Shown: one piece after another, positions 1 to 64,000 of the stretch
Numbering within the stretch: the first letter of the stretch is position 1
Layout of the letters: each line of letters opens with the position of its first letter
Sequence record: PP886230
Source of the DNA: Escherichia phage vB_EcoM_E9.1
Strand: one strand, 5' to 3'
Length of the DNA stretch: 64,000 nt
Position numbers and translations under genes: made by a program
Notes under the pieces: generated by a model
Told to the model about the DNA's origin: nothing
Seen by the model: only the letters and a program-made list of their open reading frames with translations
The model's database searches: none

Positions 1-577
1 AGTAGGCAGAGGAAGTCTGCCGTACTTTGTAGTTTCCAAGCTCCTTTTCCATTTTGTAAATTACATCAAATGTAATCAAAAGTAATCACGCAATGATTAG
101 TACTGAATTATTACTTTCACCTTAATTACAATTACCCTTTTACCCTTCGGGGTAAAATTCAATTACCCCTTGAGGCTCCAGCAAAAAGTTGGTTAGTACT
201 CCATCCTAAATCTCGATCCTAAAAATTTTGGAGTACCTATGAAATAAAAGTTGGATCTTCGAAAGTTGAAATTTACGTTGGGACGTTTATGATTTGTGGG
301 ATATAATGATGTTTGTAGACGGGTAGTTCTCAAGAATATCAGTACTGAATGGTGAAAGAAAGTTATTGACATTATGATTCAGTACTGTATAATGTTTTAC
401 ATAGAGAGATGAGTTGCCGCAAACAATTCATTCACTCTACCTCCTGTCGTGAGACAGTACAGAAAGATAGTTCCTCCAATGGGTGGTACATCTTTTTGAA
501 CCTCATATGAAAATTGTAATAACAGTACTGATATTAACAGAATGGTGTCAGTACTGATTTTAATCTAAAGCATTATG

Positions 578-597
578 CCACCAGCACAAGCTGGTGG
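578..597. repeat. inverted Chi pair CCACCAGC-ACAA-GCTGGTGG (perfect palindrome)
   Basis: Chi octamer and its reverse complement separated by 4 nt. Confidence 0.6.
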
Positions 598-719
598 ATT
601 CCCTCTAACAGTATTCAGTACTACATGATAGTCTTCATCCTCCTAGGGTAACATAGTGAGGGCTATGATGGCAGTACTGAATACTCCCTTTCAAAAGATA
701 GATCTATGGTATAGTACTG

Positions 720-905
720 ACGGATTTTGGGCGTAGTTACCCTGGATGGATTTTGGACGTAGATATGTCTAGCCCTCCAGAAGTCTGGAAGTAAAGATGG
801 CTATCCATCTAGACGGCTAAACGGCTAGATTTCTGGATGGCTAGACGTTTGGACGGCTAAACGGCTAGATGGGTACACGTCTGGAAGTATAGACGGCTAA
901 ATCAA
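720..905. repeat. iteron-like short direct repeats (gacggctaaacggctagat x2, tctggaagta x2, ttttggRcgtag x2)
   Basis: Direct repeats read from sequence; no ORF. Confidence 0.6.
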
Positions 906-1517
906 AATTTTATTTTGTTTTTCCAATAGTTCCCCTACCGCGTGGGGATAGTTTCCCCGCAGTATCTGAAGTTAGATTTTTCTGAATCTGGAATCATTAT
1001 CTTATAAACTGGGGGCAATGTCAACGGCCTGGCCGGATATTTTTAAAAATTTTTTCAGTACTGAATTTTGGGCGTAACTATGCACCCGATGGGCTTGAGT
1101 CTTTCTCGACTTGATGGAACTATTATACAGTACTGAAAAAATAAAGCAATACCCTGGAAGCAAAAAAGTTTTAATTAATTTGCTTGCTATCCTGGGCCGG
1201 ACTATGGTACTATATTTCAGTACTGAGAAAGTGCGTTTACCTGCTAGGGTGCGGGAGTCTATCCTTTTTTTATATCTTGAATTTTGGACGGATCTTCCCA
1301 CCCCCTGGGGTATCCGCTTTCTCGCGTCTATGTAGTAATTATACGCTTTTTCAGGATCAAGTCAATACCTAAAAACAAAATAATTGAAAATAATTTAACG
1401 CGTTTAAACGGCCCGTAACGCCCTGGATTGTTGGGAGTGGTGCAAATGTATAGCTTAGGTGTATTAATGCGTTAGAATGCGTCTGAGGCCGTTTTATGGG
1501 GTGTAGTAGTGATTTGG

Positions 1518-1610
1518 TTGATTCAGTACTGAATAATAGTACTCCTATATAGAAAGATAGTTCCCCTGGATTGATTCAGTACTGAATAATAGTACTCCTA
1601 TATAGAAAGA
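1518..1610. repeat. tandem direct repeat, two 40-bp copies each containing TTCAGTACTGAA
   Basis: Copy 1 1518-1557, copy 2 1571-1610, identical. Confidence 0.7.
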
Positions 1611-1641
1611 AAACTATTTTAAAAGTATTTGTAGAAAGTAC

Positions 1642-1669
1642 TTGCACCGTACTGATAAAAGCGTATAAT
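1642..1669 (+). promoter_or_regulatory. sigma70-type promoter (TTGCAC-N16-TATAAT) plus downstream leader hairpin
   Basis: -35/-10 hexamers; hairpin gcgggaa..ttcccgc follows; this cassette recurs before most early genes. Confidence 0.6.
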
Positions 1670-1725
1670 GTTTTACATCGAGAGCGGGAACACTTCCCGC
1701 TACACTTTAAGAGAGATTAATACGA

Positions 1726-2087
1726 TGGCAACTCAAATCACCAAAATTATTGCTAACCTGGTTAACTTCCGCGACGAGATGAAAGATCTTCCGGCGGCGA
1801 CGGTTAAAACTCACATTGACGCATACCGCGAACTGATTAAAATGCTGCCGCTTAAGCGTGAACAATACGCCGCTACCGTGATGCTTGATGCGATGATCCA
1901 TAAGATGATCGCCAGTGATTTGACGATGGTTTATCAGTATATGGGCGAAAATTTCGCGGTGTGTAGTAAGCCAGTACCAGGGATGGCAACAACTGAGGAA
2001 TTGCACGGCTTAAACTTAAAACAAGATGCATGGGATAATATGCCTCGTTTCCTGGTATGGGCTGACAGTGGCAAAATTTACAAATAA
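1726..2087 (+). CDS. hypothetical early protein
   Basis: ORF with promoter, leader hairpin and SD upstream; the track ORF from 1668 begins inside the promoter. Confidence 0.65.
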
Positions 2088-2101
2088 GTTTAATAAAGTA
2101 C

Positions 2102-2129
2102 TTGCAAACTATGTTTAATGGCGTATAAT
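2102..2129 (+). promoter_or_regulatory. sigma70-type promoter (TTGCAA-N16-TATAAT)
   Basis: Consensus hexamers followed by leader hairpin ggtggggaa..ttccccac. Confidence 0.6.
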
Positions 2130-2182
2130 GTTTTACATCAGGTGGGGAATAGTTCCCCACTATATAAGAGGATTAAAAAAAA

Positions 2183-2422
2183 ATGGCTAAATCAAAAATG
2201 TTCTTAGGTCACAAAAACAAAACTCATTGGAATGTAAGCCTGTGGATTAATAACGATGAGGGATTGTATCGGTTGGCCCTGGACTTTATTGCCGCCAATA
2301 CTAATCGCAATGATGCGGCCCGTCATATGATGTTATTTTTAGAACAGACTGGACAAGATAAAACACCGGACGGATTCAAATATAGCACTACTGCGATCCG
2401 TGCGGCGATGGTTGGAATGTAA
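2183..2422 (+). CDS. hypothetical early protein
   Basis: ORF 79 aa, SD aagagga upstream. Confidence 0.65.
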   Translation: MAKSKMFLGHKNKTHWNVSLWINNDEGLYRLALDFIAANTNRNDAARHMMLFLEQTGQDKTPDGFKYSTTAIRAAMVGM

Positions 2423-2510
2423 TAGAATAGAATTTATTTAAAGTACTATTGCACGGGGATAGTACTTTATAATAGTGTTTTATTCATACACCAACGATAA
2501 GGGCAACAGC

Positions 2511-2777
2511 ATGAATATTAAGTATTTTGCGACGCGTGAACAAGCTCGGATCGCCGCTCGCCAGGACGGGGCAACGTTTAAAGATATGGGCGTACAATCG
2601 GAACGTGGTAAACGTTGGGCCATTGTAAAGCGTAGTACCGCCAGATCATTACAGTACTGGTTAGCGGCCTTAAAAAGTCCCGATAGTGTATCGCGTCGAG
2701 TGGTAGAAATAAAGCTCGACCGAAAGGGCAACCGCGTGACCGTGTACCGTACTAAAAAGATTGCAGTACTTGAATAA
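2511..2777 (+). CDS. hypothetical early protein, paralogue of 14728-15123
   Basis: Shares FKDMG and DRKGNRVTVY with the later ORF; start moved to ATG after the promoter. Confidence 0.65.
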   Translation: MNIKYFATREQARIAARQDGATFKDMGVQSERGKRWAIVKRSTARSLQYWLAALKSPDSVSRRVVEIKLDRKGNRVTVYRTKKIAVLE

Positions 2778-2784
2778 AAAGTAC

Positions 2785-2812
2785 TTGCAAACTATGTTTA
2801 AAGGCGTATAAT
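2785..2812 (+). promoter_or_regulatory. sigma70-type promoter (TTGCAA-N16-TATAAT)
   Basis: Consensus hexamers plus leader hairpin. Confidence 0.6.
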
Positions 2813-2864
2813 GTTTTACATCGAGAGCGGGAACTCTTCCCGCCTATAACCTGGAGTAATAAAA

Positions 2865-3095
2865 ATGACTAATATGTATATGACTGAAGTTAAAACCGTA
2901 AAAGATACTACCACGAATAAAACTACTTACTTACAGCGGATCTGTGGTGTATGGCAACGTATCAGCAAATCAAAGTACTTTAAATTAACATCATATGCAA
3001 ACCGTTCTGATTCATTCAGTACTGAAATAAAAGGTAATAAAGTACACCAATACGGCACTTATTATTATTACAGCCTGGACGCGATTGCAGTATAA
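2865..3095 (+). CDS. hypothetical early protein
   Basis: ORF 76 aa; SD ggagt upstream. Confidence 0.6.
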   Translation: MTNMYMTEVKTVKDTTTNKTTYLQRICGVWQRISKSKYFKLTSYANRSDSFSTEIKGNKVHQYGTYYYYSLDAIAV

Positions 3096-3123
3096 GCAGT
3101 TTACAAATCTTTACAATTGCCGG

Positions 3124-3205
3124 TATTGACTTATTTTGTCAGTACTGGCATAATGTATTCATTGGCAGATAAGCCGTAGCCCATAGGGTGCGGGAGTGTA
3201 TCTAT
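3124..3205 (+). repeat. promoter-containing repeat element (REP copy, variant): TTGACT promoter followed by conserved core cccatagggtgc
   Basis: Matches the elements at 9337, 11025, 13372, 16361 and 18622. Confidence 0.55.
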
Positions 3206-3344
3206 AGAAAAATTAGTTTAGTATAGTTACAATTGTGCACCCGGTGGGTTAGCTGTTGTCATGGGGTATATTATGCCAGTACTTGATAATGCTGTCAATA
3301 CTTTTTTTTACTATCCAGTACAGAAAACTATTTTTAAAAAGTAC

Positions 3345-3372
3345 TTGCAAACTATGTTTAAAGGCGTATAAT
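3345..3372 (+). promoter_or_regulatory. sigma70-type promoter driving a short non-coding transcript
   Basis: TTGCAA-N16-TATAAT; no ORF before the next promoter. Confidence 0.55.
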
Positions 3373-3377
3373 GTTTT

Positions 3378-3460
3378 ACATCAGGACGGGGGAACGAAAT
3401 AAGTAACTTCCCGTTAAGTAGCCCAGGAGTAAGGCACACGAAAAACTCCCCTGATAAAAT
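3378..3460 (+). ncRNA. candidate small RNA (copy 1), about 85 nt between two promoters
   Basis: Conserved sequence with compensatory-looking stems (acgggg..ccccgt, atcagga..tcccctgat); second copy at 13532-13612; no ORF. Confidence 0.35.
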
Positions 3461-3463
3461 AGT

Positions 3464-3491
3464 TTGACAAATGTTTTTAAAAGCGTATAAT
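3464..3491 (+). promoter_or_regulatory. sigma70-type promoter (TTGACA-N16-TATAAT)
   Basis: Consensus hexamers. Confidence 0.6.
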
Positions 3492-3523
3492 ACTTACATC
3501 AACTACTGAATGAGGGTTACAAA

Positions 3524-4135
3524 ATGAAAACTATCACTACTACTACTTTCGTTATGGATTTTTCTGAATTGAACGCAGAACAAAAAACGTCAGCTATCGA
3601 ACTGGTTCGGGAACGTGAAAAAAACTCAAACGACAATTATTTTTCTGAAAGTGAAATTGAATACTATAAAGAAACAGTACTACCGGAATATGGCATTAAT
3701 GACGCTGAAATACAATTCAGTGGCTTTTGGTCCCAGGGTGACGGTGCATCAATCAGTACTGACCACGTTGACGCAGTGAAGTTTTTACGCAAGGTAAGAG
3801 CATTAACTAAGTATCGCTCAATCCGTCACTTGCTGAATGAAGATGATTTGGCGATGAGTGTAAAGCGTTCGCACTCCCACTACTCGCATGAGAATACTGT
3901 AAGCGGGTACATTGAATCGGCTTACACTGATTTAACCGCAAAACAAGAAACGTTAGTTAATGAGCTTGAGGAACTACTCACTGATACTATTCGTGAATTG
4001 TCCCGCAAGTTGTACCGTGATTTAGAGAATGCATATGAGGATCAATTCACTACTGAAAACATTACGGCACTGATTGAGGGTAACGAGTATCAATTCAATG
4101 TTATTGATGGCGTAGTGGAATCAATCGAATATTAA
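3524..4135 (+). CDS. hypothetical acidic protein (203 aa)
   Basis: ORF with SD gagggt; acidic composition. Confidence 0.7.
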   Translation: MKTITTTTFVMDFSELNAEQKTSAIELVREREKNSNDNYFSESEIEYYKETVLPEYGINDAEIQFSGFWSQGDGASISTDHVDAVKFLRKVRALTKYRSIRHLLNEDDLAMSVKRSHSHYSHENTVSGYIESAYTDLTAKQETLVNELEELLTDTIRELSRKLYRDLENAYEDQFTTENITALIEGNEYQFNVIDGVVESIEY

Positions 4136-4227
4136 TTTAAAAAGTACTTGCAAACTAAGTTTAAAAGCGTATAATACTTTATATCGAGAGCGGGAATAGT
4201 TCCCGCTACTAATGAGGAATACTACAA

Positions 4228-4392
4228 ATGAATACTTTTACCTTCGCTCAATTGAACGCCCTGGATGTATTGTCTGATGCTTTGCGGGATGCAACTGAAA
4301 GCGGTTTATTTGACAATGTTGACATTCACCCTGATGTAATTAATAATTTTTGTGATGCTATCGCAGAAGTACTGGAAGATCTAAAAAAATAA
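4228..4392 (+). CDS. hypothetical small protein (54 aa)
   Basis: ORF below the track cutoff with promoter, hairpin and SD gagga upstream. Confidence 0.5.
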   Translation: MNTFTFAQLNALDVLSDALRDATESGLFDNVDIHPDVINNFCDAIAEVLEDLKK

Positions 4393-4480
4393 TAGAAAGT
4401 ACTTGCAATTAGTTTTTAGTACTGTATAATGTTTTACATAGAGGGGAGAAATGGTTCTCCCTGGTAATGAGGAAAATACA

Positions 4481-4702
4481 ATGGCTAATATCACTACTCT
4501 TTCCCAACTGGAAGCACTGGTTAAATCTATGCGGGAACATGCCGACAATATCGGCGTAAAAGATCCAGCCGTTTGCTTCTGCGACGAATTGAATGATGAT
4601 ACCCTGGTAATAGCAGAAGTCCAGGACGTTTCTAACTATTCCTCGCGTTACACTGGCGGCGTAGCAAATAAAGGTGACTTCTGTTTATACCTTACCAAAT
4701 AA
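4481..4702 (+). CDS. hypothetical early protein
   Basis: ATG after the leader hairpin; the track ORF from 4451 starts inside the hairpin. Confidence 0.65.
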   Translation: MANITTLSQLEALVKSMREHADNIGVKDPAVCFCDELNDDTLVIAEVQDVSNYSSRYTGGVANKGDFCLYLTK

Positions 4703-4705
4703 CAA

Positions 4706-4737
4706 CGCGGGGAGATAATAACTCCCCGTTACTTTTT
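4706..4737 (+). terminator. rho-independent terminator
   Basis: GC hairpin cgcggggag..ctccccg then T-run. Confidence 0.6.
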
Positions 4738-4945
4738 CAGTACTGAATCATTTAATAGACGGATCTCGGCACCCGGTGGGTTAGTGACTGTTTCGTCTTG
4801 ATGTAGTAATTATGCCAGTACTGGATGCACTTGTCAACAACTATTTTTCAAATACTTTTTATTAAAATACTTGCTAATAGTTTTTAAACGCGTATAATGT
4901 TTTGCATAGGGGGAGCGGTTCCCCTGGTAACTAAGGAATAATAAA

Positions 4946-5182
4946 ATGCTTGAACAAATCAAATCAACGTCTGCGAATGTAACGGGAACGGTTGTACACT
5001 TTACTAGTGATGAATCGCGGGGCGTTCCCTATTGTGCTGTACATGTAAACACTGATGGCAACTACTGGTTTACGGTTTACGGATCATATTCATTTGGACG
5101 ACCAGGGCATCAAAAAATTCTGGATAAAGTACAGCCAACGGGTAAAAATATCACGGCTGAAATGTTTTATAAAAAATCATAA
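4946..5182 (+). CDS. hypothetical early protein
   Basis: ORF 78 aa with promoter, hairpin and SD. Confidence 0.65.
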   Translation: MLEQIKSTSANVTGTVVHFTSDESRGVPYCAVHVNTDGNYWFTVYGSYSFGRPGHQKILDKVQPTGKNITAEMFYKKS

Positions 5183-5267
5183 AGTACTTGATAATAGTTT
5201 TTAGTACTGTATAATATTTTACATCGCAAGGGGGTAATGGTTCCCCCTGGTAACTAAGGATAATCAA

Positions 5268-5567
5268 ATGAAAGTTGCATTCATCGCCCTGGCTTTATCT
5301 GTTTCCTCTTTTGCTGTTAATGCGTCGTTAGATGTAAGTAGTGAAAAATTCATTCAGTGCACTGTAGCAATGACAGATGAAAGTACTGGCGAGATTGTAT
5401 TAAAGGATCTGGAGATTCAGCCGGAAGCATTTAAAAACGGCCCGTTCCATGAAGAAGACGAAAACGGTAGCACAACAATTTATTATGATGCCAGTACTAA
5501 ACGCGGGTCGGTCACTGTTATGGATACTGAGAAAGTAACTCATACTGGCGTTATTAATTGCCGTTGA
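5268..5567 (+). CDS. putative secreted protein with N-terminal signal peptide
   Basis: N-terminus MKVAFIALALSVSSFAVNA is hydrophobic with an AxA-type site. Confidence 0.65.
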   Translation: MKVAFIALALSVSSFAVNASLDVSSEKFIQCTVAMTDESTGEIVLKDLEIQPEAFKNGPFHEEDENGSTTIYYDASTKRGSVTVMDTEKVTHTGVINCR

Positions 5568-5588
5568 TAGATACTACGGGGTAACATC

Positions 5589-5819
5589 ATGACTAAGCGA
5601 ATTGTTTTACTTAACGAAAGCAGTACTACACAACTACTTAACGCCGTGCATTATGATATTGAAACGAGCGTTAATCTTATCAGTACTGTAGTACTGTTGG
5701 ACACTGGAAAGGTCGCCAATGATAAAGCGATTGCAGGTATACTAACGGATCTTGAGCCTGGTAGCAGTGCACCAATAACGTTAAATGGTAAAGTGTTTAA
5801 TATTTTACTCACTGATTAA
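5589..5819 (+). CDS. hypothetical protein
   Basis: ORF 76 aa immediately downstream, SD present. Confidence 0.6.
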   Translation: MTKRIVLLNESSTTQLLNAVHYDIETSVNLISTVVLLDTGKVANDKAIAGILTDLEPGSSAPITLNGKVFNILLTD

Positions 5820-5825
5820 GTACAT

Positions 5826-5850
5826 AGCCCACCTGGTGGGCTTTTTTGTT
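5826..5850 (+). terminator. rho-independent terminator
   Basis: Hairpin agcccacctggtgggct then TTTTTT. Confidence 0.7.
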
Positions 5851-6050
5851 TTTGTAGTATCGTAGTACTGAGATACTTTGAAAATAGTTTTAAAAAAGTA
5901 GTTGACATTACCGCAGAAAAGCGTAGAATGTATTACATCAAGACGGGGAGCACTAAGTAGACCGCCAGTAAGTCGAACGAAAAACTGGACACGTCGAGAA
6001 AACTTTGATACACTAATAAACGTAAACTAAACTTTAATTGAGGATTTATA

Positions 6051-6533
6051 ATGGCTAATGTAAAATCATTCATCAAAGCACTGGTAGCAAATGAAACTAA
6101 CGTCGCGGCTGAGATCCTGGCTGAACTGGATAACGATACCATGAAAGCGGTACGCAATAATTTTAACATCGCGTACAGTACTGCGAAAGAACTACAAGCA
6201 AATAAAGCGGCAGAAATTGAAGCGGCAAAGGCGGCCCGTGAAGCAGAACTACAAGCAACAATCGAAAGTATCCAGGCGGCGGTGTCTGGATTGGATCTGG
6301 AAGTGGTTGTGGAAATGGCACATAAAGCCCTGGCGGTTAAGTATGGTGAAGATAAGCCAGAATCTAAACCCAAAAAATGGATTCAGGAACGCGTAGCGGT
6401 AGTACTGGACAACGGGGAAGAATATCTGATTCCGGTGCGTGGTAACTGTATTGCGGTAGTACTGGACGCTATCAAAGAAAGCGGTATGACTCGCGAGGAA
6501 TGGATCGAAGCTCATCGCAAAGTTGAAGCATAA
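6051..6533 (+). CDS. hypothetical Ala/Lys-rich protein (160 aa)
   Basis: ORF with TTGACA promoter near 5903 and a long leader; SD gagga. Confidence 0.7.
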   Translation: MANVKSFIKALVANETNVAAEILAELDNDTMKAVRNNFNIAYSTAKELQANKAAEIEAAKAAREAELQATIESIQAAVSGLDLEVVVEMAHKALAVKYGEDKPESKPKKWIQERVAVVLDNGEEYLIPVRGNCIAVVLDAIKESGMTREEWIEAHRKVEA

Positions 6534-6554
6534 CAATTAAAGTACTGAATCACT

Positions 6555-6582
6555 AGCCCACTGTATAAGTGGGCTTTTTTGT
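6555..6582 (+). terminator. rho-independent terminator
   Basis: Hairpin agcccactgtataagtgggct then TTTTTT. Confidence 0.7.
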
Positions 6583-6817
6583 GTTTATCGTTTACCAGGC
6601 CACCAGCACCGCCTAGAAACGATTCTAACGCATTAAACGGATTATCTGATGCATTGCCCTAGCTGGTGGCGTTAAGGCTGTAAGAACGCGATTGAGAGCG
6701 TTTAAAGTATTTTGCAAAAAGTAATAAAAAGTACTTGAACGATTAAGAGATTAGCGTATAATGTTTTACATCGAGAGGGGGAAACGGTTCTCCTTCCAAA
6801 TCAAAGGAATCAAAACA

Positions 6818-7045
6818 ATGGCTATTATCATTACTCGCGTATCTGGTACTACTGGCAACGAACAAGTAGTTGCAGTCATTACGAACAAGGCAGGTGCGGA
6901 ATTGCAAAATGCAATGAATACCTGGGCCGTTAATGAGTTCGGTCAGTGGGCAAGTGTAGCATACATTGAAACCTATCAAGTGCCGTCGATTAGTTTAACT
7001 GATTTGGGCGTTGAGCGTATCCTTTGCCTTGATGAATTAAATTAA
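6818..7045 (+). CDS. hypothetical early protein
   Basis: ATG after promoter and hairpin; the track ORF from 6761 starts in the promoter. Confidence 0.65.
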   Translation: MAIIITRVSGTTGNEQVVAVITNKAGAELQNAMNTWAVNEFGQWASVAYIETYQVPSISLTDLGVERILCLDELN

Positions 7046-7130
7046 AAAAGTACTTGCAAAGTAAATCGAATAAAGTATAATACATTACATCAAGGGGAGA
7101 AATGGTTCTCCCCACTACAAGGAAACTAAA

Positions 7131-7343
7131 ATGGCTATCATTACTAAAATCAAAGTTAGTAAATCACTGGTTAAACTTGAAGAAGTGAAAGAAGGTTATA
7201 AAGTATCTTGGTGCGGTATGTATCGGACGTTCGCAGATATAGATGATGCGATCAATTATTACACTGACACGGTTAAAAACTTTGTTCGTGCTGATGTGGT
7301 TATGGCAGTGGCAACATATAAAGCATCAAAAGAAAGTAAGTAA
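7131..7343 (+). CDS. hypothetical early protein, paralogue of 10287-10466
   Basis: N-terminus MAIITKIKV resembles MAIIAKTEI. Confidence 0.65.
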   Translation: MAIITKIKVSKSLVKLEEVKEGYKVSWCGMYRTFADIDDAINYYTDTVKNFVRADVVMAVATYKASKESK

Positions 7344-7424
7344 AAATATTATCACAGTACTATTGACATAGTTTGATAGTACTGGCATAATAACTTTTAT
7401 CAAGACAACTAAGAGGAAATTAAA

Positions 7425-7769
7425 ATGGCTAACATCAATACTATAGCAGCACAAAATATCAACCTGTCTTCTGTTGAAGTTGTACATATTGCCGCTCGGC
7501 GTTGGTTCCAGGCTTCATATGGTAACACTTATTTCTCTTTAAGTGTAGACGTAGAAATTGATGGTAATTTTATTGAAGTAGTAAACGTGCCGTTCCAATA
7601 TGGATACGGGGATCATTTTGACACTGTAGCAATGGAAGAATTTAGCAAGGTTATTAATATGGAAGGTAAAGAGTTTTTACGCGGTTCTTATCTTTCCCGT
7701 TTTTGCCGTGATAATAATATCACTGTTTATAGTTCTGTTAGTGATGTTAAACGCAAAAAAGATCTTTAA
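7425..7769 (+). CDS. hypothetical early protein, paralogue of 14309-14632
   Basis: Shared GNTY, YGYG and C-terminal DVKRKKD. Confidence 0.7.
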   Translation: MANINTIAAQNINLSSVEVVHIAARRWFQASYGNTYFSLSVDVEIDGNFIEVVNVPFQYGYGDHFDTVAMEEFSKVINMEGKEFLRGSYLSRFCRDNNITVYSSVSDVKRKKDL

Positions 7770-7849
7770 TTAGCTTTACTTTATGCAGATACTTTGATAT
7801 AGTGTCTGCATAGGGGAAAGAAATTAAATTAACTTAAGAGGATAGTATA

Positions 7850-8119
7850 ATGAAAAATATCAGTACTTTAATCGATGCAGGTACTCATGTTCGTCGGTCT
7901 ATGGTTGCAACCAGTACTACAAAACAAGTAGCGAGCGGTTATCTTGTATTTGTGCACGATGGTAAACTCCTGGAACGTTCAATCAATTTTGATGTTAAAA
8001 ACAATTGCCGTTTTATTATCTTTAAGCGTGAGCAATATAAAATTGATTTACCAGCAAAGCCCATTAGTGGGGCGTACAACGTGCAATCATTGTTTGAACG
8101 TCAACCATACACCTATTAA
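7850..8119 (+). CDS. hypothetical protein
   Basis: ORF 89 aa, SD aagagga. Confidence 0.6.
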   Translation: MKNISTLIDAGTHVRRSMVATSTTKQVASGYLVFVHDGKLLERSINFDVKNNCRFIIFKREQYKIDLPAKPISGAYNVQSLFERQPYTY

Positions 8120-8170
8120 TCAAAACATCGTTAGCGGTCGATTCAGGCCGCTTATATTGGGGATTATACC

Positions 8171-8443
8171 ATGAACGTTAATCAAGTACTGAATGAGATC
8201 GAAAGCATCATTAAACCGATGAAGCGTACTGATGCTATGTTAACACCGGAAGAATGCCGCCTTTATGAGCGTTACAGCGTCGAACAAGTCCAGGCAATGG
8301 CTATGGCTACCCCAGCCGTTAAACCGCCTGAGAATGCGTTACAGGACGTTACAGGGGATTATATCATCAATCCAGTACTAGGGAAGATGGCTGCAATCAC
8401 CGAAGATCAACAAGACTACTTAAGCCAGTACTTAAAAGGTTAA
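8171..8443 (+). CDS. hypothetical protein
   Basis: ORF 90 aa. Confidence 0.6.
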   Translation: MNVNQVLNEIESIIKPMKRTDAMLTPEECRLYERYSVEQVQAMAMATPAVKPPENALQDVTGDYIINPVLGKMAAITEDQQDYLSQYLKG

Positions 8444-8448
8444 TTAAT

Positions 8449-8658
8449 ATGCTTACTGTACAGGATAAGATCGACATCTTAAAGGTTAATATGTATGTGA
8501 TTGATGCAGAACCTGGTAAAGTATTTGCATACGATGATAGTACTGTAAGCGATTTCTACTATAGCCAGGCCGTGGGGGATCTTTCTGTACAGTCGGTTAT
8601 TGAAAACGTAGTTAATGCAGCGTATGAGCATTTACTTTCAAATAGTACTTGCAATTAG
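8449..8658 (+). CDS. hypothetical protein
   Basis: ORF 69 aa, closely follows previous gene. Confidence 0.55.
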   Translation: MLTVQDKIDILKVNMYVIDAEPGKVFAYDDSTVSDFYYSQAVGDLSVQSVIENVVNAAYEHLLSNSTCN

Positions 8659-8728
8659 TTTTTAAACGCGTATAATGTTTTACATCGAGAGCGGGAATAG
8701 TTCCCGCCTCACTTTTAAGGAATATGAA

Positions 8729-8875
8729 ATGAAAGCATCAAAAAAGAGTACTAACAAGAAAGCACGTTCAACCTTAGATGGGGTATTCCCTTTACGTTTC
8801 GTTGATGAAGTGGTTTCCTACCCGCCTGGCCTTACTCCTGAGATGGTAGAAAGTTTGCGTAAATCTAAAAAATAG
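8729..8875 (+). CDS. hypothetical small basic protein (48 aa)
   Basis: In-frame ATG with SD taagga 8 nt upstream; the track ORF from 8675 begins in the promoter. Confidence 0.55.
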   Translation: MKASKKSTNKKARSTLDGVFPLRFVDEVVSYPPGLTPEMVESLRKSKK

Positions 8876-8956
8876 TACTTGCAATTAGTTTTTAGTACTG
8901 TATAATGTTTTACATGAAGGGGAGAAATGATTCTCCCCAATAACAGGAGAAACAAA

Positions 8957-9109
8957 ATGAAACAATACAACGCTCGGTTTGATGTTACTATCGGTAACGG
9001 CAAAGGTCAATTCTCTTTCAGTACTCGCCGCAGTTATACAGAAAACTTCCTGCGTAATTGTGCATTGACCGCCGCTCAAATTAAACATTATTTTCAGGCT
9101 AAAAAATGA
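8957..9109 (+). CDS. hypothetical small protein (50 aa)
   Basis: ATG after SD aggaga; promoter and hairpin upstream. Confidence 0.55.
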   Translation: MKQYNARFDVTIGNGKGQFSFSTRRSYTENFLRNCALTAAQIKHYFQAKK

Positions 9110-9195
9110 GATCATTAGCTTATTACAGTTCGGCCCTGGTCGGTGCATTGATCGCGGCGTTGTTAGTAACCTATCTATTCTTTATGGTGATTTAA
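9106..9195 (+). CDS. putative single-pass membrane peptide (29 aa)
   Basis: ATGA overlap with upstream stop; hydrophobic sequence. Confidence 0.35.
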   Translation: MRSLAYYSSALVGALIAALLVTYLFFMVI

Positions 9196-9333
9196 ATGAA
9201 TCCTAACGGTATAATTTACAGTACTCCTAAAACGAAAGCAGACAAGGTAAACGCTAAAAAAGCGAAAGTAAAGGAGTACATCAAACAAGGAATGACACGA
9301 AAGGCGGCGATTCTAAAAGCTAAAAATAAATGA
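9196..9333 (+). CDS. hypothetical small Lys-rich protein (45 aa)
   Basis: ATG directly after previous stop (TAAATG). Confidence 0.35.
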   Translation: MNPNGIIYSTPKTKADKVNAKKAKVKEYIKQGMTRKAAILKAKNK

Positions 9334-9336
9334 AAA

Positions 9337-9432
9337 AGTGGTTGACTTCGGTCAGCCATTTTGCTATTATATATTCATTGAGAGATAGCTCACTAGCCCA
9401 CAGGGTGCAGGAGTGTATCTATTGTATAATGT
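9337..9432 (+). repeat. promoter-containing repeat element (REP copy)
   Basis: ttgacttcggtcag..ctattatat then ..ctagcccacagggtgcaggagtgtatc. Confidence 0.6.
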
Positions 9433-9553
9433 TTGAGTACTGAAAACTATTTTAAAGTATTTGATAAAAAGTACTTGCAAACTATCTCAATAAGCGTATA
9501 ATGTTTTACATCGCAAGGGGAAACGGTTTCCCCTAGTAATAAGGAAACGAATC

Positions 9554-9895
9554 ATGACTATCTCAATTGCTCAATCTAACTTTGAAAATGAAATCATCGC
9601 CCAGGCACTGCGTTTAAATGATGGTCGGGCCGAAATCAATTACGGTTTCAATTCAGGCGGTTGTGAAAAATATCAGTACTTTGTAACGGCTGATGGCGGT
9701 GTACTGGGCATCAATACAGTTATTGTAAACATACAGAAAATTAATTTCAATGATCCAGACGATAGCCAGTTTTACATCACTGGCGTAGACGTGAACTATG
9801 AGGATGACTCACTAACTGATGACCACACTGGCGAGAAGTTAGAAAGTGCATACGGTGAAGATGATTATCAGTCCGGTCCAGAAGATTTCGAATAA
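9554..9895 (+). CDS. hypothetical acidic protein
   Basis: ORF 113 aa with promoter, hairpin and SD. Confidence 0.7.
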   Translation: MTISIAQSNFENEIIAQALRLNDGRAEINYGFNSGGCEKYQYFVTADGGVLGINTVIVNIQKINFNDPDDSQFYITGVDVNYEDDSLTDDHTGEKLESAYGEDDYQSGPEDFE

Positions 9896-9991
9896 TATTA
9901 AAAAATAGTTTGACAATAGATTATAGTACTGTATAATAGTTTACATCAAGGGGAGAAAAACTTCTCCCCACTAACAGAGAGAGAAAACAAA

Positions 9992-10204
9992 ATGGCTAAT
10001 ATCCGGTCGAAATTAAAAAATGCAAAACAAGTTTTATTTTCAGATCATGAATACTTTAATAAAGATATTACAGGAGTTACAAGTATCAAGGAAGTAAAAG
10101 AAAAAACCGGCGTTTTGTGTGATGTGCGATTAGTTGGGACATTTGGGAATAACGTGCTATATCGCTGTGGTGATTACAATTTTACACTGACTATCATTAA
10201 CTAA
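9992..10204 (+). CDS. hypothetical protein
   Basis: ORF 70 aa with promoter and hairpin. Confidence 0.65.
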   Translation: MANIRSKLKNAKQVLFSDHEYFNKDITGVTSIKEVKEKTGVLCDVRLVGTFGNNVLYRCGDYNFTLTIIN

Positions 10205-10286
10205 AAATATTATCACAGTACTATTGACATAGTTTGATAGTACTGACATAATAACTTTTATCAACTACACTACTAAGGAATTAAAA

Positions 10287-10466
10287 ATGGCTATCATCGC
10301 AAAAACTGAAATCATCGGCCTGGATTCTATCATCATGACGTTTGAAGATCAAAAAGGTATGTATGTGGTTTCCTATGGTGATTATGTTCGGGAGTATGAA
10401 ACGGTAGACGAAGCCTTTGAAAGTTACATTCGCCAGGTGAATAAAGCATACGACGACTACCGCTAA
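10287..10466 (+). CDS. hypothetical small protein (59 aa), paralogue of 7131-7343
   Basis: ORF below track cutoff; SD aagga; promoter 10215-10250. Confidence 0.55.
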   Translation: MAIIAKTEIIGLDSIIMTFEDQKGMYVVSYGDYVREYETVDEAFESYIRQVNKAYDDYR

Positions 10467-10565
10467 AATATATTACCAGTACTATTAAAGATATTGACAA
10501 CGTTTGATAGTACTGTATAATAAGTTTTATAAACAGTAGTTAACTTAACCTAAGAGAGAAATAAA

Positions 10566-10709
10566 ATGATCGCACTGGATTCATTCATCGACGCAGTACT
10601 GGCAAAAACTGGCGAGGATCTGACCGCAGAACAATACGCGATGATCGAACAATGTCAACAGGACGGTAAATCGGTGAAAGATACTGTTAAGATTATCCGC
10701 AAGATGTAA
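10566..10709 (+). CDS. hypothetical small protein (47 aa)
   Basis: ORF with SD agagaga and promoter upstream. Confidence 0.45.
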   Translation: MIALDSFIDAVLAKTGEDLTAEQYAMIEQCQQDGKSVKDTVKIIRKM

Positions 10710-10714
10710 GATTA

Positions 10715-10745
10715 TAGCCCACTGGTTAACGCTGGTGGGCTTTAA
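10715..10745 (+). terminator. terminator-like hairpin containing a Chi octamer
   Basis: agcccac..gtgggct stem; GCTGGTGG at 10732-10739; weak T-run. Confidence 0.45.
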
Positions 10746-10814
10746 TTCATTACCCTATACAATGCCAGTACTAAACCGTTTATCTCGTTAGAATGCGTTA
10801 CAGGACGTTTACCA

Positions 10815-11012
10815 ATGATTAGCATGAAATCAGTACAAAAACAAATAGAAACATTATCAAAAATTAAACGTAAACAGTACTCCTTAGAATATACAATCAA
10901 TGGTAACTATCATCTAATGAAAGAAAATAATTTTATAGTCATTGATGAATCATTGCAAATCATTAGTATAGTACTGAAAGCATTAATCAATGACAGAAAA
11001 AAATTAAAATAA
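10815..11012 (+). CDS. hypothetical protein
   Basis: ORF 65 aa. Confidence 0.5.
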   Translation: MISMKSVQKQIETLSKIKRKQYSLEYTINGNYHLMKENNFIVIDESLQIISIVLKALINDRKKLK

Positions 11013-11024
11013 ACTATTGACAAT

Positions 11025-11112
11025 ATCATCCAGCACTGGCATAATACTTACACCAAGACGAGAACGTCACTAACCCATAGGGTGCACAAATGTAACTGTA
11101 TAATATTGATCA
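11025..11112 (+). repeat. promoter-containing repeat element (REP copy, variant)
   Basis: TTGACA..cataat promoter then ..ctaacccatagggtgcacaaatgtaac. Confidence 0.5.
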
Positions 11113-11601: not shown

Positions 11602-11664
11602 AAAGTATTGACAGTACTGAAAGATAGTGTATAATGTTTTATATCTTAACTGAGGATAGTAATC

Positions 11665-23010: not shown

Positions 23011-23011
23011 C

Positions 23012-58552: not shown

Positions 58553-59074
58553 ATGTCGAAGAAGGATACTTCGAACAAACATTCAGTACACTTCAGTACT
58601 GGTAAAGATAACTGGACAACTCCAAAAGATTTCTTTGAAGAGTTAGATGAGTTATGGGGATTTACGCTTGATGCTGCTTGTGTTGATGAGACTGCATTAT
58701 GTGAGAATTATTTTACACCAAATGATGATTCTCTTTCACAGGATTGGGGAAAGAATATAGTTTGGTTGAACCCTCCATATAGTGATTTGAAAACATGGTT
58801 ATCTAAAGCAGTAGATGCGTATAATAAAGGGGCAACTGTATTAATTCTTGTACCATCAAGAACGGATACTATAGCTTTTCAGGATTATGCTGCGAAAGTT
58901 TGTGATTGTATTTGTTTTATTAAGGGAAGGTTACGATTTGGTATCCCAGAAGAACCAGAGAAGAAAACAGATTCAGCACCATTTCCTTCGTGTCTGATAG
59001 TACTAGATAAGTACTTAACCACTGCTAAAATCAATTATCTTAAATCTCTTGGATTGGTGATGAAGAATTTATGA
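58553..59074 (+). CDS. phage Dam-type DNA N6-adenine methyltransferase
   Basis: N-terminal W-TP..FF..LD..WGFTLDAA and catalytic NPPY motif. Confidence 0.8.
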   Translation: MSKKDTSNKHSVHFSTGKDNWTTPKDFFEELDELWGFTLDAACVDETALCENYFTPNDDSLSQDWGKNIVWLNPPYSDLKTWLSKAVDAYNKGATVLILVPSRTDTIAFQDYAAKVCDCICFIKGRLRFGIPEEPEKKTDSAPFPSCLIVLDKYLTTAKINYLKSLGLVMKNL

Positions 59075-59604
59075 AAGAAACATGTATATTATCATTTATG
59101 AGATGTAACCCAGTCCACAATGGTCATGGTTTAGTTTTTGAAAAGGCCAAAACATTACAAGAACAGTACAATGCAGATTTGAAAATATATCTAAGCACCA
59201 GTACTGATAATATAAAAAACCCGCTTCCTCCTGAATTAAAGATGTATTACACTGAGGGTTTCTATCCTTCGGTTCAAGAAAACATTTATACTGAAGATAA
59301 TCTTTTTGATATAATGCGTGAATTAGATGGAAAATATTTAGATGTATTTTTTATATGTGGTTCAGACCGTATTGATTCTTTTCAGAAAACACTTGACAGT
59401 TACAATGGGAAGTTGTATAATTTTTGTAATATAAAAGCAATTCAAGCAGGTATTGACCGCCAATCAAGTCAATATAGCTCAACACAAATGCGTAACTTCG
59501 CAAAAAATGAAGATTTTGATAGTTTTCGTGAGTTTTTACCTGGAAATGACGAGGACTTAAAAATACAATTATTTGAAGACGTTATAAAATACATGAGGAA
59601 ATAA
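59071..59604 (+). CDS. nucleotidyltransferase-like protein with HxGH motif (possible NMN/NaMN adenylyltransferase-like)
   Basis: N-terminal SFMRCNPVHNGH resembles the FDP.H.GH motif of cytidylyltransferase-fold enzymes; ATGA overlap with the methyltransferase gene. Confidence 0.45.
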   Translation: MKETCILSFMRCNPVHNGHGLVFEKAKTLQEQYNADLKIYLSTSTDNIKNPLPPELKMYYTEGFYPSVQENIYTEDNLFDIMRELDGKYLDVFFICGSDRIDSFQKTLDSYNGKLYNFCNIKAIQAGIDRQSSQYSSTQMRNFAKNEDFDSFREFLPGNDEDLKIQLFEDVIKYMRK

Positions 59605-61662: not shown

Positions 61663-61672
61663 GAGGTTACAT

Positions 61673-61984
61673 ATGTTATTAAATGATATACAATTCACAT
61701 ACAAATTTTTGTATATCCAATACGCTACGGTTGATGCTGGAGAATATCTCTACAGTGAAATCTATCGTTCGGTATGGATAAAGTTTTTGGATGAATTACA
61801 TGAATATTACCATGATTTGTGTATAGTTCGTGATAATAAAATATACAAATTTCGCGATATTGTTAGTCATAGCGGTAAGCTACGATTGGAATTAAGTACT
61901 GATAGTGATGTTGATTGGATTGGTGTAAATTTACTGGAATTGAAGAATGAAAAACAACTTAAAGGAAATACAAGTATTTTATAA
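61673..61984 (+). CDS. family C paralogue
   Basis: N-terminus MLLNDIQFTYKFLYIQY. Confidence 0.6.
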   Translation: MLLNDIQFTYKFLYIQYATVDAGEYLYSEIYRSVWIKFLDELHEYYHDLCIVRDNKIYKFRDIVSHSGKLRLELSTDSDVDWIGVNLLELKNEKQLKGNTSIL

Positions 61985-62231
61985 ATTCTTATACTTATCA
62001 TATGTAAAAGATGAGTACTATGAAAGTGTATATTATTTTTTATGGCAACATTACCGTACTATAGTAAGAGATTTATATATAGGAAAATCTATCATATCCA
62101 ATGGTGAAAAATGTATCTGTACGGATGTAGTTAGTTTTAATGGTTCTTTAACACTGTGTTTCAGATGCGATAATAATAGTGGGTCATTTTCATTAAACGT
62201 ATATCAGTTAGAAGGAATAAATTTTGAATAA
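61947..62231 (+). CDS. family C paralogue
   Basis: N-terminus ..LKEIQVFYKFLYLSY. Confidence 0.55.
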   Translation: MKNNLKEIQVFYKFLYLSYVKDEYYESVYYFLWQHYRTIVRDLYIGKSIISNGEKCICTDVVSFNGSLTLCFRCDNNSGSFSLNVYQLEGINFE

Positions 62232-62424
62232 ATGTCCATATTGTAACAGTACTCAATTAGCTCGTTTCCGTTTAGATTCAGACTGGGCGACTGGTGCTGG
62301 TGATTTCTTCCCTATTAATGATGATGCAGAATACACCGAAGAACAGCACAAAGATTTTGATAAATCATGGCGACCTGACATTGAGTGCATTTATTGCCTT
62401 AATTGTGAGCGTGTTCATGACTAA
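62224..62424 (+). CDS. small zinc-ribbon protein (4 Cys)
   Basis: CPYC near N-terminus and CIYCLNC near C-terminus. Confidence 0.6.
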   Translation: MNKCPYCNSTQLARFRLDSDWATGAGDFFPINDDAEYTEEQHKDFDKSWRPDIECIYCLNCERVHD

Positions 62425-62680
62425 AGCTGAACTAATAGTTCATACATATAAAATGATATCAAGTACTGAGTTATCATATAGTGCAGATAATCCAGTACTG
62501 GATTATTTTGTTGAATTATTGAAAGAGCATTATATTGGTAAATCACTGATTCTTAATAATATTAATTTCACGGTAAAGGATGTAGCACCTGGAAAAAACG
62601 TACTAATAGTATGTGTTACTTCATCTGATAACCCAGTATACCCAATATCAATAATTTTTGAGATATTAGGAGATTTATGA
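62417..62680 (+). CDS. hypothetical protein (possible family C relative)
   Basis: ATG at 62417 overlapping upstream stop (track ORF from 62294). Confidence 0.5.
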   Translation: MTKAELIVHTYKMISSTELSYSADNPVLDYFVELLKEHYIGKSLILNNINFTVKDVAPGKNVLIVCVTSSDNPVYPISIIFEILGDL

Positions 62681-62967
62681 ATATCATTTTAATGCAGAAA
62701 ACATATGCTATATTGGTGAAAGATTATTCCATTACTTTCGATTCACAAGAAAGTGCTCTACATAACCTATACAAAAACGTAACACAAGAATACAGAAATA
62801 TGTTTTCTGACTTAGTAGTAGGAAGGTATTTCAGTACTAGAAAATACCCAAAACTTCAAATAGTTGATGTTTCTTTTTATTTCAATGGTCATATTACTAT
62901 TCATAGTTTAGACCAAGATTCAACAACGTACTTAAACTTTTCATTTGATGAGGTAACATTTTTATGA
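62677..62967 (+). CDS. family C paralogue
   Basis: N-terminus MNIILMQKTYAILVKDY; ATGA overlap. Confidence 0.55.
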   Translation: MNIILMQKTYAILVKDYSITFDSQESALHNLYKNVTQEYRNMFSDLVVGRYFSTRKYPKLQIVDVSFYFNGHITIHSLDQDSTTYLNFSFDEVTFL

Positions 62968-63140
62968 GAACAGTATTTTTTATCTGGAGTCTTTTTTCAT
63001 TGGCAGTACTGACAGTATGTGGGATTTGTTTCCTTTCATCAATTAATACTTGGTATATCAATTTACTATTTCCATTTGTCGGTGTTGGTTTAGGGTTTAC
63101 TTTGCATAGTGTATGTAAGGATTACAATGAGAACAAATGA
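62964..63140 (+). CDS. putative small membrane protein (58 aa, two hydrophobic segments)
   Basis: ORF below track cutoff; ATGA overlap with upstream stop. Confidence 0.45.
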   Translation: MRTVFFIWSLFSLAVLTVCGICFLSSINTWYINLLFPFVGVGLGFTLHSVCKDYNENK

Positions 63141-63405
63141 AGTACTTATTGCTGAAACAATGAAGATGATTTACAATATCACGTCAGCACAGAATATGCC
63201 CTATCCAACTAAGTCTTTATTGAGGACTGTGTATCTGGGGATAGTACAGGAGTACTACAAATCCAAGCACCGAAGCATTATTAGTGTTTATCGTGATTAT
63301 GAAAGGATTCGTATTTTATTCTGGAACAAGAATCGAGTACGTTCTGAATGTGACCTAGTGGACTTTAAATTAGAGAATCTTTATTGCTATAAACAGGGAC
63401 AATAG
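63127..63405 (+). CDS. hypothetical protein
   Basis: ATG at 63127 preferred over the GTG at 63109 used by the track. Confidence 0.5.
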   Translation: MRTNEVLIAETMKMIYNITSAQNMPYPTKSLLRTVYLGIVQEYYKSKHRSIISVYRDYERIRILFWNKNRVRSECDLVDFKLENLYCYKQGQ

Positions 63406-63462
63406 TTTAATTCATGATATAATAATGGGTAAGGAACAATAATTAACACAAGGAGTGTGTGA

Positions 63463-64000
63463 AATGCTTGACCGTATCCGTTTCGCTACAGAGATGGCGA
63501 ATGAATTAAACATGGCAAATTTCCAAATGTTAACATCAGTAATGGCTGAACATGCATGTGCTTATTCTGTAAGTGGTGTGCAGTGTGGTCAGGAGAATAT
63601 GTTAGCAGATGTTTATAGTGAAGTGCAAAGTAAGCAATATAGTGTAAAGACATATAAGGATAAGTTTGTTAGTCTTTATATGAACGAAGATATTGCCGAA
63701 GACCGTAAATTCACTGATTTTATTATTGAACGCCGAGTATCAGGTGTATCTAATCCTAATGCATCAAGCGAGGAAGTTTTTGCAGAAGTACTGAAAGATA
63801 TATACGAAAATGAATTAAAAAGTAAGAATCATTACAATGTACGTGAAACTAACACAGTGCTCTTGGGATATGATGAAGACGAAGAATACTATTATTTTCG
63901 TATGACTGAAGTTCCTTTTGAATACAAATCTCCATATACAACTACAGTGAAAGAATTTACTGAAAAAAGTAAAAACTTCATGAAGCATGAAGGAAATCGT
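63463..64000 (+). CDS. hypothetical protein, 3' partial (continues past window end)
   Basis: SD aaggag 8 nt upstream of ATG; open frame with no stop to the window end. Confidence 0.6.

Follow-up and report, generated by a model that had tools for sequence, protein, structure and literature searches.

The palindrome AGTACT saturates the DNA of RaK2/121Q-type jumbo phages and occupies fixed positions in early promoters

What keeps one six-base palindrome, AGTACT, at very high density in the DNA of a jumbo phage? The question is raised by a stretch of 64,000 nucleotides from Escherichia phage vB_EcoM_E9.1 (sequence record PP886230), which was analysed as a whole and is called the window below. 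The window is DNA of a 121Q/PBECO4/RaK2-type jumbo phage, with 87–98% identity to the Asteriusvirus jumbo phages of E. coli (121Q, PBECO4, G17, phAPEC6, fEgEco12, and others; 350–380 kb). All of its genes lie on the plus strand, and its first 20 kb form a mosaic early region of short genes. An original prediction, made by reading the sequence, held that AGTACT is strongly over-represented across the window, though sparse in some stretches, and suggested that it is a functional site in the DNA.

The over-representation was borne out by exact counts. AGTACT occurs 250 times in the window, whereas dinucleotide-preserving shuffles of the 64,000 bases contain 17.4 ± 3.7 copies (maximum 28). The mononucleotide expectation is 21.4 copies, and the background of about 0.3 per kb assumed in the original prediction was correct. 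AGTACT ranks first among all hexamers of the window; the next two, CAGTAC and GTACTG, are sub-words of it. The mean density is 3.9 per kb, with 5–11 per kb in 1–20 kb, about 6 per kb in 24.7–27.2 kb, and 2–5 per kb in 35–64 kb. Two complete gaps, 19,977–24,750 and 27,202–34,903, contain no copies at all. The higher densities estimated earlier by eye were sampled from dense stretches (12 sites in 1–1300, 8 in 26–27 kb, and 6 in 35–36 kb), and the interval of 30–31 kb, where few or none had been noticed, has none.

The enrichment acts on the DNA itself and is strand-symmetric, because the flanks of the sites are reverse-complement symmetric despite all genes lying on one strand, and because enrichment is higher in non-coding than in coding sequence and all reading frames are used. 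The base preceding the motif is C at 109 of the 250 sites, and the base following it is G at 123; G at position –1 (22 of 250 sites, the least used base there) and C at position +1 (16 of 250) are avoided. The extended form CAGTACTG was counted 60 times. The 12-bp palindrome TTCAGTACTGAA, to which the original prediction had drawn attention in non-coding DNA, is present in seven copies, is found between genes, and does not occur in shuffles. Gene calls made in this analysis, which match the annotation of phage G17 wherever both are available, assign 72 sites to 9.5 kb of non-coding DNA (7.6 per kb) and 176 sites to coding sequence (3.2 per kb). The coding sites are distributed over the three frames as 71/43/62, in line with the earlier remark that several frames are used. 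A motif acting at the level of RNA was rejected on account of the flank symmetry and the position of promoter sites upstream of transcription starts.

The trait is shared by a clade of phages. Genome-wide tests were performed on a complete relative, EC22.5-2 (352 kb), which contains 919 copies of AGTACT compared with about 101 expected, at 1–3.5 per kb throughout and in both gene orientations, and at 7 per kb in the early region. Further afield, AGTACT is enriched in Salmonella phage PHA46 (204 copies versus 14.5 expected in 50 kb), in the core genes of Klebsiella phage RaK2 (114 versus 10.8), in Cronobacter phage GAP32 (96 versus 11.2), in Xanthomonas phage XbC2 (63 versus 8.1), and likewise in the Klebsiella phage relative OU509535. 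It is not enriched in the two outgroups, Pseudomonas phage PA5oct, which has three copies in 50 kb at a similar GC content, and Vibrio phage 2.275.O (11 versus 8 expected). The primases of the AGTACT-rich clade share at least 63% identity, compared with 41% for Vibrio 2.275.O and 30% for PA5oct. The host was represented by a single 50-kb stretch of E. coli K-12, which has three copies, about 0.06 per kb versus about 2.6 per kb in the phage; the phage carries 40–60 times more sites per kb than this host sample. A scan of IMG/VR with a primase alignment recovered four loci, two of which belong to known genomes and two to distant contigs without the trait. No mention of AGTACT was found in the consulted papers on RaK2, CBB, PA5oct, and jumbo-phage comparison, or by full-text searches together with the word 'phage'; coverage of subscription journals was thin in these searches, and an earlier description is possible. 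The saturation of RaK2/121Q-type phages with AGTACT appears to be undescribed so far.

AGTACT is imposed on the DNA as far as the encoded protein permits, because the codon choices of dipeptides are bent toward it and the sites are uniformly distributed along genes. Shuffling of synonymous codons within each gene of the window yields 49 ± 5 coding copies of AGTACT, compared with the 176 observed. In the long open reading frames (ORFs) of EC22.5-2, with expectations derived from codon usage, 267 of 521 Ser-Thr dipeptides are encoded as AGT-ACT (84 expected), and 145 of 239 Val-Leu dipeptides that follow an A-ending codon are encoded as GTA-CTN (42 expected). AGT-ACT accounts for 51–63% of Ser-Thr dipeptides, whereas codon usage predicts about 16%. 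Tyrosine in the context nAG-Tyr-Tnn is encoded by TAC in 71 of 93 cases, compared with 27% elsewhere. The same codon-level bias was detected in RaK2, GAP32, and XbC2, and was not found in PA5oct or Vibrio 2.275.O.

The AGTACT sites are under selection. The window and EC22.5-2 diverge by 3.6% overall and by 3.2% in the 12 bases on each side of the sites, whereas the motif bases differ at only 1.1%, a threefold lower rate. Of the 242 aligned sites, 12 (5%) are altered; among control hexamers with matching base composition the share is 14% (P = 1e-5). Sites gained and sites lost between the two phages balance at 12 each and involve substitutions of all kinds. At the larger distance between RaK2 and the E. 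coli phage, whose core genes share 69% nucleotide identity, 24 of 88 sites (27%) occupy the same codon position, compared with 16% of controls (P = 0.007). Most positions thus turn over between genera, and the density is kept. In four separate regions, the sites are spaced more regularly than at random (coefficient of variation 0.77–0.91 versus about 0.99), and the largest AGTACT-free intervals in these regions are shorter than expected.

AGTACT is the sole clearly enriched six-base palindrome in EC22.5-2. Of the 64 possible six-base palindromes, 23 have no copies in this genome, including CCATGG (48 expected) and TGGCCA (44 expected). The tetramer GCGC is missing from both EC22.5-2 (180 expected) and the window (40.5 expected), and was not found in the stretches of RaK2, GAP32, PHA46, XbC2, and OU509535; PA5oct and Vibrio 2.275.O contain 47 copies each, and the 50-kb E. 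coli sample has 6.8 per kb. Unmodified DNA under heavy restriction pressure would be expected to lose palindromes in this way. The argument of the original prediction that a restriction target would be depleted therefore holds for the other palindromes, and avoidance of AGTACT as a restriction site was rejected, since the word is 9–14-fold enriched. In a genome purged of palindromes, the excess of AGTACT must bring a large benefit that offsets the restriction risk. The E. coli Chi sequence GCTGGTGG is also frequent in the window, with 12 copies versus 0.4 expected (at 578–18746 and 57809). Eleven of the 12 are in the first 19 kb, nine are on the plus strand, and several are intergenic, beside AGTACT.

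In the early region, a near-consensus sigma-70-type promoter precedes almost every gene, and AGTACT occupies two fixed positions relative to it. At the –35 element the site adjoins the upstream edge of the hexamer, and its final T is common to both, as in AAAGTAC-TTGCAA or AGTACTATTGACA. At the extended –10 element the site lies in the spacer and adjoins the upstream edge of the element, as in CAGTAC-TGTATAAT. The contexts described in the original prediction, aaAGTACTtgcaa at –35 and tAGTACTgtataat at –10, are real and recurrent. Pattern counts over the whole window identified 38 sites at –35 and 17 at the extended –10, together 55 of 250 (22%), which leaves 195 sites outside promoters. In promoters that carry both sites, the site starts are 20–22 bp apart, and the spacing of AGTACT pairs peaks there. 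The dual-site layout recurs in Klebsiella phage OU509535, for example as AGTACTTGACAACTGATTTCAGTACTGTATAAT, with the general form AGTACTTGACA-N12-CAGTACTGTATAAT. The early promoters thus show features of operators, a palindrome that overlaps core promoter elements and multiple sites at helical-turn spacing. AGTACT is dispensable for promoter function as such, because some early promoters do without it. The early promoters are parts of repeated cassettes, in which the promoter is followed by a conserved leader, GTATAATGTTTTACATCGAGAGCGGGAA...TTCCCGC, that forms a hairpin, and by a ribosome-binding site (for example 2088–2182, 2778–2864, and 4136–4227, within 1–20000). These resemble the mobile promoter-stem-loop cassettes of T4-type phages. 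Positions 1–1113 are 1.1 kb of non-coding DNA with degenerate 8/16/40-bp repeats (GGCTAAACGGCTAGAC...) at 809–901. Because its first base is also position 1 of the fEgEco12 record, this stretch may represent an end of the genome or serve in packaging or replication.

The two AGTACT-free gaps differ in cause. The second gap is the product of a separate constraint, a ban on sense-strand ACT, under which the motif survives in its nearest ACT-free form, AGTACA. The plus strand of 27,200–34,833 contains no ACT in any frame or between genes, whereas the window as a whole contains 1,208 copies and elsewhere has no ACT-free run longer than 370 nt; given the 19 copies per kb of the flanks, the log10 P of this absence is about –64. 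The complementary trinucleotide AGT is present at a normal level (191 copies), and the block also contains ACA (237), ACC (50), ACG (47), and GCT (58). None of the 115 threonine codons is ACT, compared with 43–50% in the flanks. AGTACA occurs 41 times, compared with 3.7 copies expected from a Markov model and 14.9 ± 2.7 from synonymous shuffling. Its frames (16/12/12) are mixed, its flanks TTC...G are those of AGTACT, and 16 of 17 Ser-Thr dipeptides are encoded as AGT-ACA. The force that makes AGTACT still operates in the block, but yields to the stronger ban on ACT. AGTTCA (18 versus 4.1 expected) and GTTCAG (13 versus 2.2) are also enriched in 27250–34850, possibly as another rewritten version of the motif.

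In EC22.5-2, the run homologous to the ACT-free block is 8,213 nt long (OR845138.1, 58328–66539) and is the sole anomaly of this kind for any trinucleotide in the 352 kb. No run of comparable score was found in seven other sequences, namely four phage relatives, the two phage outgroups, and the E. coli sample. PHA46 has a shorter ACT-free run (1,955 + 434 nt, at 41122–43509) in genes without detectable similarity to those of the window. The gaps are not recent foreign DNA, since both are conserved at 84–97% identity in at least 30 relatives, and the combination of AGTACA and missing ACT in the non-homologous PHA46 block further opposes that explanation. The proteins of the block were assigned no known function in Pfam and PHROGs scans, and a scan of 19.5–36.5 kb for promoters and terminators gave fewer promoter-like matches than shuffles and did not delimit transcription units cleanly.

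In having genes wholly without one sense-strand trinucleotide, the block resembles ACA-less and GCU-less transcripts, which are immune to the mRNA interferases MazF and MqsR, respectively. The sequence-specific mRNA interferases of E. coli listed in PMC12151602 are MazF (ACA), ChpB (ACD), and MqsR (GCU). All three were rejected for the block, which, unlike the transcripts immune to MazF or MqsR, retains ACA, ACG, and GCT. A nuclease specific for ACU only was not found in a single literature search. Immunity to an ACU-specific RNase and a strand-specific DNA process are both possibilities for the origin of the block.

The AGTACA variant has a polarity of its own. Its plus-strand excess starts at 24294, before the ban on ACT, and fades by about 52 kb. 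Its strand preference flips near 24.2 kb: the minus strand carries 13 of the 14 copies to the left of this point, and the plus strand 55 of the 56 to the right (16499–35189). The switch is independent of gene orientation, as all genes are on the plus strand. The left arm consists mostly of nine non-independent copies in paralogues. A genome-wide replication skew was rejected as the source, because the polarity is confined to about 30 kb and the cumulative skew is flat elsewhere. The AT and GC skews shift sharply near 26 kb.

The first gap lies within a tandem array of paralogous, overlapping genes of a family without an assigned function (phrog_4148), which spans 20205–25725 and has further members at 27270, 27458, and 39981. 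This gap has neither AGTACT nor plus-strand AGTACA. It contains nine copies of TGTACT, located at a conserved position of the paralogues. The features of the window are listed in Table 1.

Table 1. Positions of AGTACT-related features and of a candidate modification locus in the window
Feature	Position	Strand	Remarks
AGTACT, 250 copies	1–64000		Extended form preferred, CAGTACTG or TTCAGTACTGAA; 14-fold over dinucleotide expectation
Early region	1–20000	+	133 sites; 10.8 per kb non-coding, 4.7 per kb coding; nearly every gene with its own sigma-70-type promoter
Perfect 12-bp palindrome TTCAGTACTGAA	1054–1065; further copies at 1522, 1575, 3015, 4736, 16462, 40332		7 copies; none in shuffles
Dual-site promoter AGTACTTGCAATTAGTTTTTAGTACTGTATAAT	4398–4430	+	Site starts 20 bp apart
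Other dual-site promoters	5183–5215, 8874–8906, 7356–7391, 10217–10252, 17997–18032	+	Same layout
First AGTACT-free gap	19977–24750	+	Within tandem array (about 25 paralogous genes, each encoding about 70 amino acids; phrog_4148)
Inter-gap segment	24751–27201		16 AGTACT sites
Second gap, ACT-free block	27200–34833	+	7,634 nt without ACT; AGTACA in place of the motif
Right part	34904–64000		101 sites, 99 of them within tightly packed genes (3.7 per kb); synonymous shuffle expects 30 ± 4.5
Dam-family (PF05869) N6-adenine methyltransferase	58553–59074	+	Sole candidate modifier in the window; stop overlaps start of next ORF
177-amino-acid ORF	59071–59604	+	Cytidylyltransferase or nucleotidyltransferase in sequence records; no Pfam match

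The explanation that we place first, although tentatively, is that AGTACT is the site of a phage-encoded DNA-binding protein with two-fold symmetry, a dimer that controls the early promoters and marks or organises the phage DNA. A target of DNA modification is placed second, and a signal read on single-stranded DNA during replication third. Three features favour the binding protein: the promoter geometry resembles that of operators and is conserved between genera, the palindrome extends into the flanks, and a near-site is tolerated. Retention of AGTACA would be less surprising for a DNA-binding protein than for an enzyme of restriction or modification. The analysis establishes the enrichment, its symmetric action on DNA, selection on the sites, the distribution in the clade, and the promoter geometry; from these we infer the existence and nature of a reader and the effect of its binding. 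Such a reader would be strong, clade-specific, and strand-symmetric, would act at the level of DNA on about 8–12 bp, would tolerate AGTACA, and would confer a benefit that depends on the density of its sites. The predicted dimer would read CAGTACTG or TTCAGTACTGAA on duplex DNA. Sites in the early region could be operators that switch the early promoters used by the host polymerase, and a dimer at the edge of the –35 or extended –10 element would overlap the contacts of RNA polymerase and either collide or cooperate with it. Elsewhere, about 2.6 evenly spaced sites per kb, synonymously written into genes, might mark, organise, or protect the phage DNA, which is conjecture.

Several observations weigh against a DNA-binding protein. 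No DNA-binding domain was detected in the 30 window proteins that were scanned against Pfam or PHROGs, early and gap proteins included. AGTACT saturates late structural and replication genes, which a pure regulator of transcription would not need. The fallback form AGTACA is changed at position 6 only, whereas a symmetric dimer is expected to tolerate central changes. The helical phasing of close AGTACT pairs is marginal (p 0.02–0.09), and the promoter cassettes are related by duplication and hence are not independent. Furthermore, the polarity of AGTACA suggests that a strand-asymmetric process also matters. The broader claim of the original prediction, that AGTACT is a functional DNA site and not a codon artefact, is well supported by selection, codon choice, flanks, conservation in the clade, and depletion of other palindromes. 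Its two specific proposals, a dimeric DNA-binding protein and a sequence-specific modification, are also the two leading explanations here.

It is unlikely, but deserves to be considered next, that AGTACT is the target of a modifying enzyme of the phage, for which the Dam-family methyltransferase, perhaps with the ORF at its 3' side, is the candidate, and that the word is an epigenetic mark of self. Modified AGTACT might then serve in protection, in the post-replicative timing of early promoters, or in strand discrimination. A palindrome of 6 bp is the typical size of a methyltransferase target, and methylation would explain why one palindrome is tolerated in an otherwise purged genome. The PF05869 gene and the ORF that follows it are kept as a pair across the AGTACT-rich clade (in Asteriusvirus, RaK2/K64-1, PHA46/Munch, Erwinia, Yersinia, and XbC2 phages); the matches listed or tallied for the pair at E < 1e-25 include no Pseudomonas phage. 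Against this reading, enzymes of the PF05869 family usually methylate GATC. Protection accounts for tolerance of the word, but not for 9–14-fold enrichment or saturation at the codon level, and since methyltransferases seldom accept a changed base, it is hard to see why the ACT-free block retains AGTACA as densely as the motif. The DNA of RaK2 is reported to resist many restriction enzymes; however, its methylation is reported in CpG context (PMC3622015), and the only other methyltransferase in the genome of the relative is a C5 enzyme. The precedent of HIP1, which has been linked to orphan methyltransferases and to selection, also speaks for modification (Elhai 2015, PMC4390886; Xu 2018, PMC5861425). 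The replication machinery offers another reader, to which we give somewhat less credence: AGTACT could be read on single-stranded DNA as a start site for a T4-type gp61 primase, or as a loading signal for a helicase or clamp. T4 primase uses GCT/GTT sites, and its pentamer primer and one cryptic base make up a hexamer. By analogy, 5'-AGTACT-3' would template the 5-nt primer GUACU with one cryptic 3' base, and a palindrome would serve both strands. This agrees with the hexamer length, with genome-wide saturation of both strands by evenly spaced sites that are at most about 2 kb apart, and with the distribution of the trait, which tracks the primase clade and is missing from both phages with more distant primases. 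The sole variant in the ACT-free block alters position 6 and leaves GTACT intact on the opposite strand, and the flip of AGTACA polarity at about 24.2 kb is independent of gene orientation, although its left arm consists mostly of the non-independent paralogue copies. However, we know of no primase with a hexamer requirement, and ACT itself is abundant (19 per kb). The fixed –35 and –10 positions in early promoters across genera and the 4.8-kb paralogue array almost without sites would remain unexplained.

The other explanations carry little weight. A neutral drive without function, such as biased very-short-patch repair or gene conversion of the kind seen for Dcm/Vsr and CCWGG in E. coli, is improbable. 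The turnover of positions at constant density between genera, the balance of gains and losses between close relatives, and the C5-methyltransferase in the genome would suit it. The signature of very-short-patch repair, depletion of the T:G-mismatch neighbours AGTATT and AATACT, was not observed in EC22.5-2 (1.41 and 1.05 of expectation, respectively), where no single-mismatch neighbour is depleted, and sites are created and destroyed by substitutions of all kinds. Moreover, a neutral process would not skip the conserved 4.8 kb and 7.6 kb or write AGTACA, and is not expected to produce even spacing and fixed promoter positions. An artefact of codon-pair usage, base composition, or copying of promoter cassettes has next to no probability, even though synonymous shuffling already gives 49 coding copies instead of 17 and about 22% of the sites are in related cassettes. 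The coding copies far exceed that number and occupy all frames, the non-coding excess is larger still, and codon usage is itself bent toward the word; the effect is missing from PA5oct at similar GC content. The original prediction would have been refuted if codon-pair usage explained the enrichment and non-coding DNA showed no excess, which is not what the counts show. Cassette copies were rejected as the sole source, as 195 sites lie outside promoters. Just as implausible is binding of SlmA, a nucleoid-occlusion factor of the host, although AGTACT forms the middle of its consensus, GTGAGTACTCAC, and most hosts of the clade are enterobacteria. SlmA binding needs G1, T2, A4, and G5 of GTGAGTACTCAC (PMC3020112), and the factor was rejected because neither the window nor the 352-kb relative contains a full relaxed site. 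Half flanks occur at 9–10 of 919 sites per side, below the roughly 28 per side that a hand estimate from base composition predicts, and G at –1 is the least used base. Mechanisms beyond those considered here hold the remaining probability.

A more general possibility, which we regard as doubtful but worth stating, is that sequence words alone allow these phages to distinguish their unmodified DNA, and part of their RNA, from the nucleic acids of the host. AGTACT would be a saturating positive mark, at about 2.6 per kb in the phage versus about 0.06 per kb in the 50-kb E. coli sample, read by a phage protein. GCGC, abundant in that sample and missing from the phage, would allow a nuclease of either to act on one DNA only, and the ACT-free operon block would be immune to a hypothetical ACT/ACU-specific nuclease. 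If this is true, the reader of AGTACT and the ACT-specific activity would both be new sequence-specific factors. The ACT-free block points to an unrecognised trinucleotide-specific activity in the conflict between phage and host. The fitness stake must be large, because, at dipeptides that can encode AGTACT, a clade of 350-kb phages uses over half of its free codon choices for this word while other palindromes are erased. Discovery of the reader could reveal a new control of early transcription, an organisation of large genomes, or self-marking without base modification. The system is tractable, since the phages grow on E. coli K-12, AGTACT is a ScaI site, the promoters are simple, and the ACT-free block is an internal control. 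Word statistics of this kind can also identify members of the clade and delimit genome modules.

The closest known analogue of AGTACT is HIP1 (GCGATCGC), a cyanobacterial palindrome that is 15–300-fold over-represented, selected, and linked to orphan methyltransferases (PMC5861425, PMC4390886). Like HIP1, AGTACT is in about 10-fold or greater excess genome-wide (250 versus 17 copies in the window, 919 versus 101 in EC22.5-2), occurs within genes in all frames and between genes, is conserved above the neutral level, and has a methyltransferase in the same genome. Unlike HIP1, it is 6 bp long, AT-rich, and viral rather than cellular, and it is accompanied by near-total loss of other palindromes, fixed positions in sigma-70-type promoters, and the strand-specific variant AGTACA. 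The Dcm target CCWGG is likewise in excess in E. coli, where the signature of Dcm/Vsr is depletion of the deamination neighbour; AGTACT shares with this methyltransferase target the over-representation, but not the depleted neighbour. The sites of SlmA and Noc are also dispersed palindromes that mark the location of DNA and are missing from one region. They differ from AGTACT, at which the flanks required by SlmA are depleted, and number about 50 per chromosome compared with about 900 AGTACT per phage genome. Among phage proteins, SPO1 TF1, which recognises hydroxymethyluracil DNA, and phi29 p6 are global DNA-binding proteins. The proposed reader would resemble them in preferring phage DNA, in coating or organising it, and in shutting off early promoters, and would differ from TF1 in reading a six-base word in place of hydroxymethyluracil DNA; no homologue was identified. 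Chi, FtsK-orienting polar sequences (KOPS), and DNA-uptake sequences are, like AGTACT, dispersed in genes and kept for their density and not their position. They are under selection for a DNA-processing protein and are asymmetric and strand-polar, whereas AGTACT is palindromic and cannot be polar. Behind each short over-represented word of this type, such as Chi, the uptake sequences, and HIP1, dedicated DNA machinery has been discovered or is still awaited.

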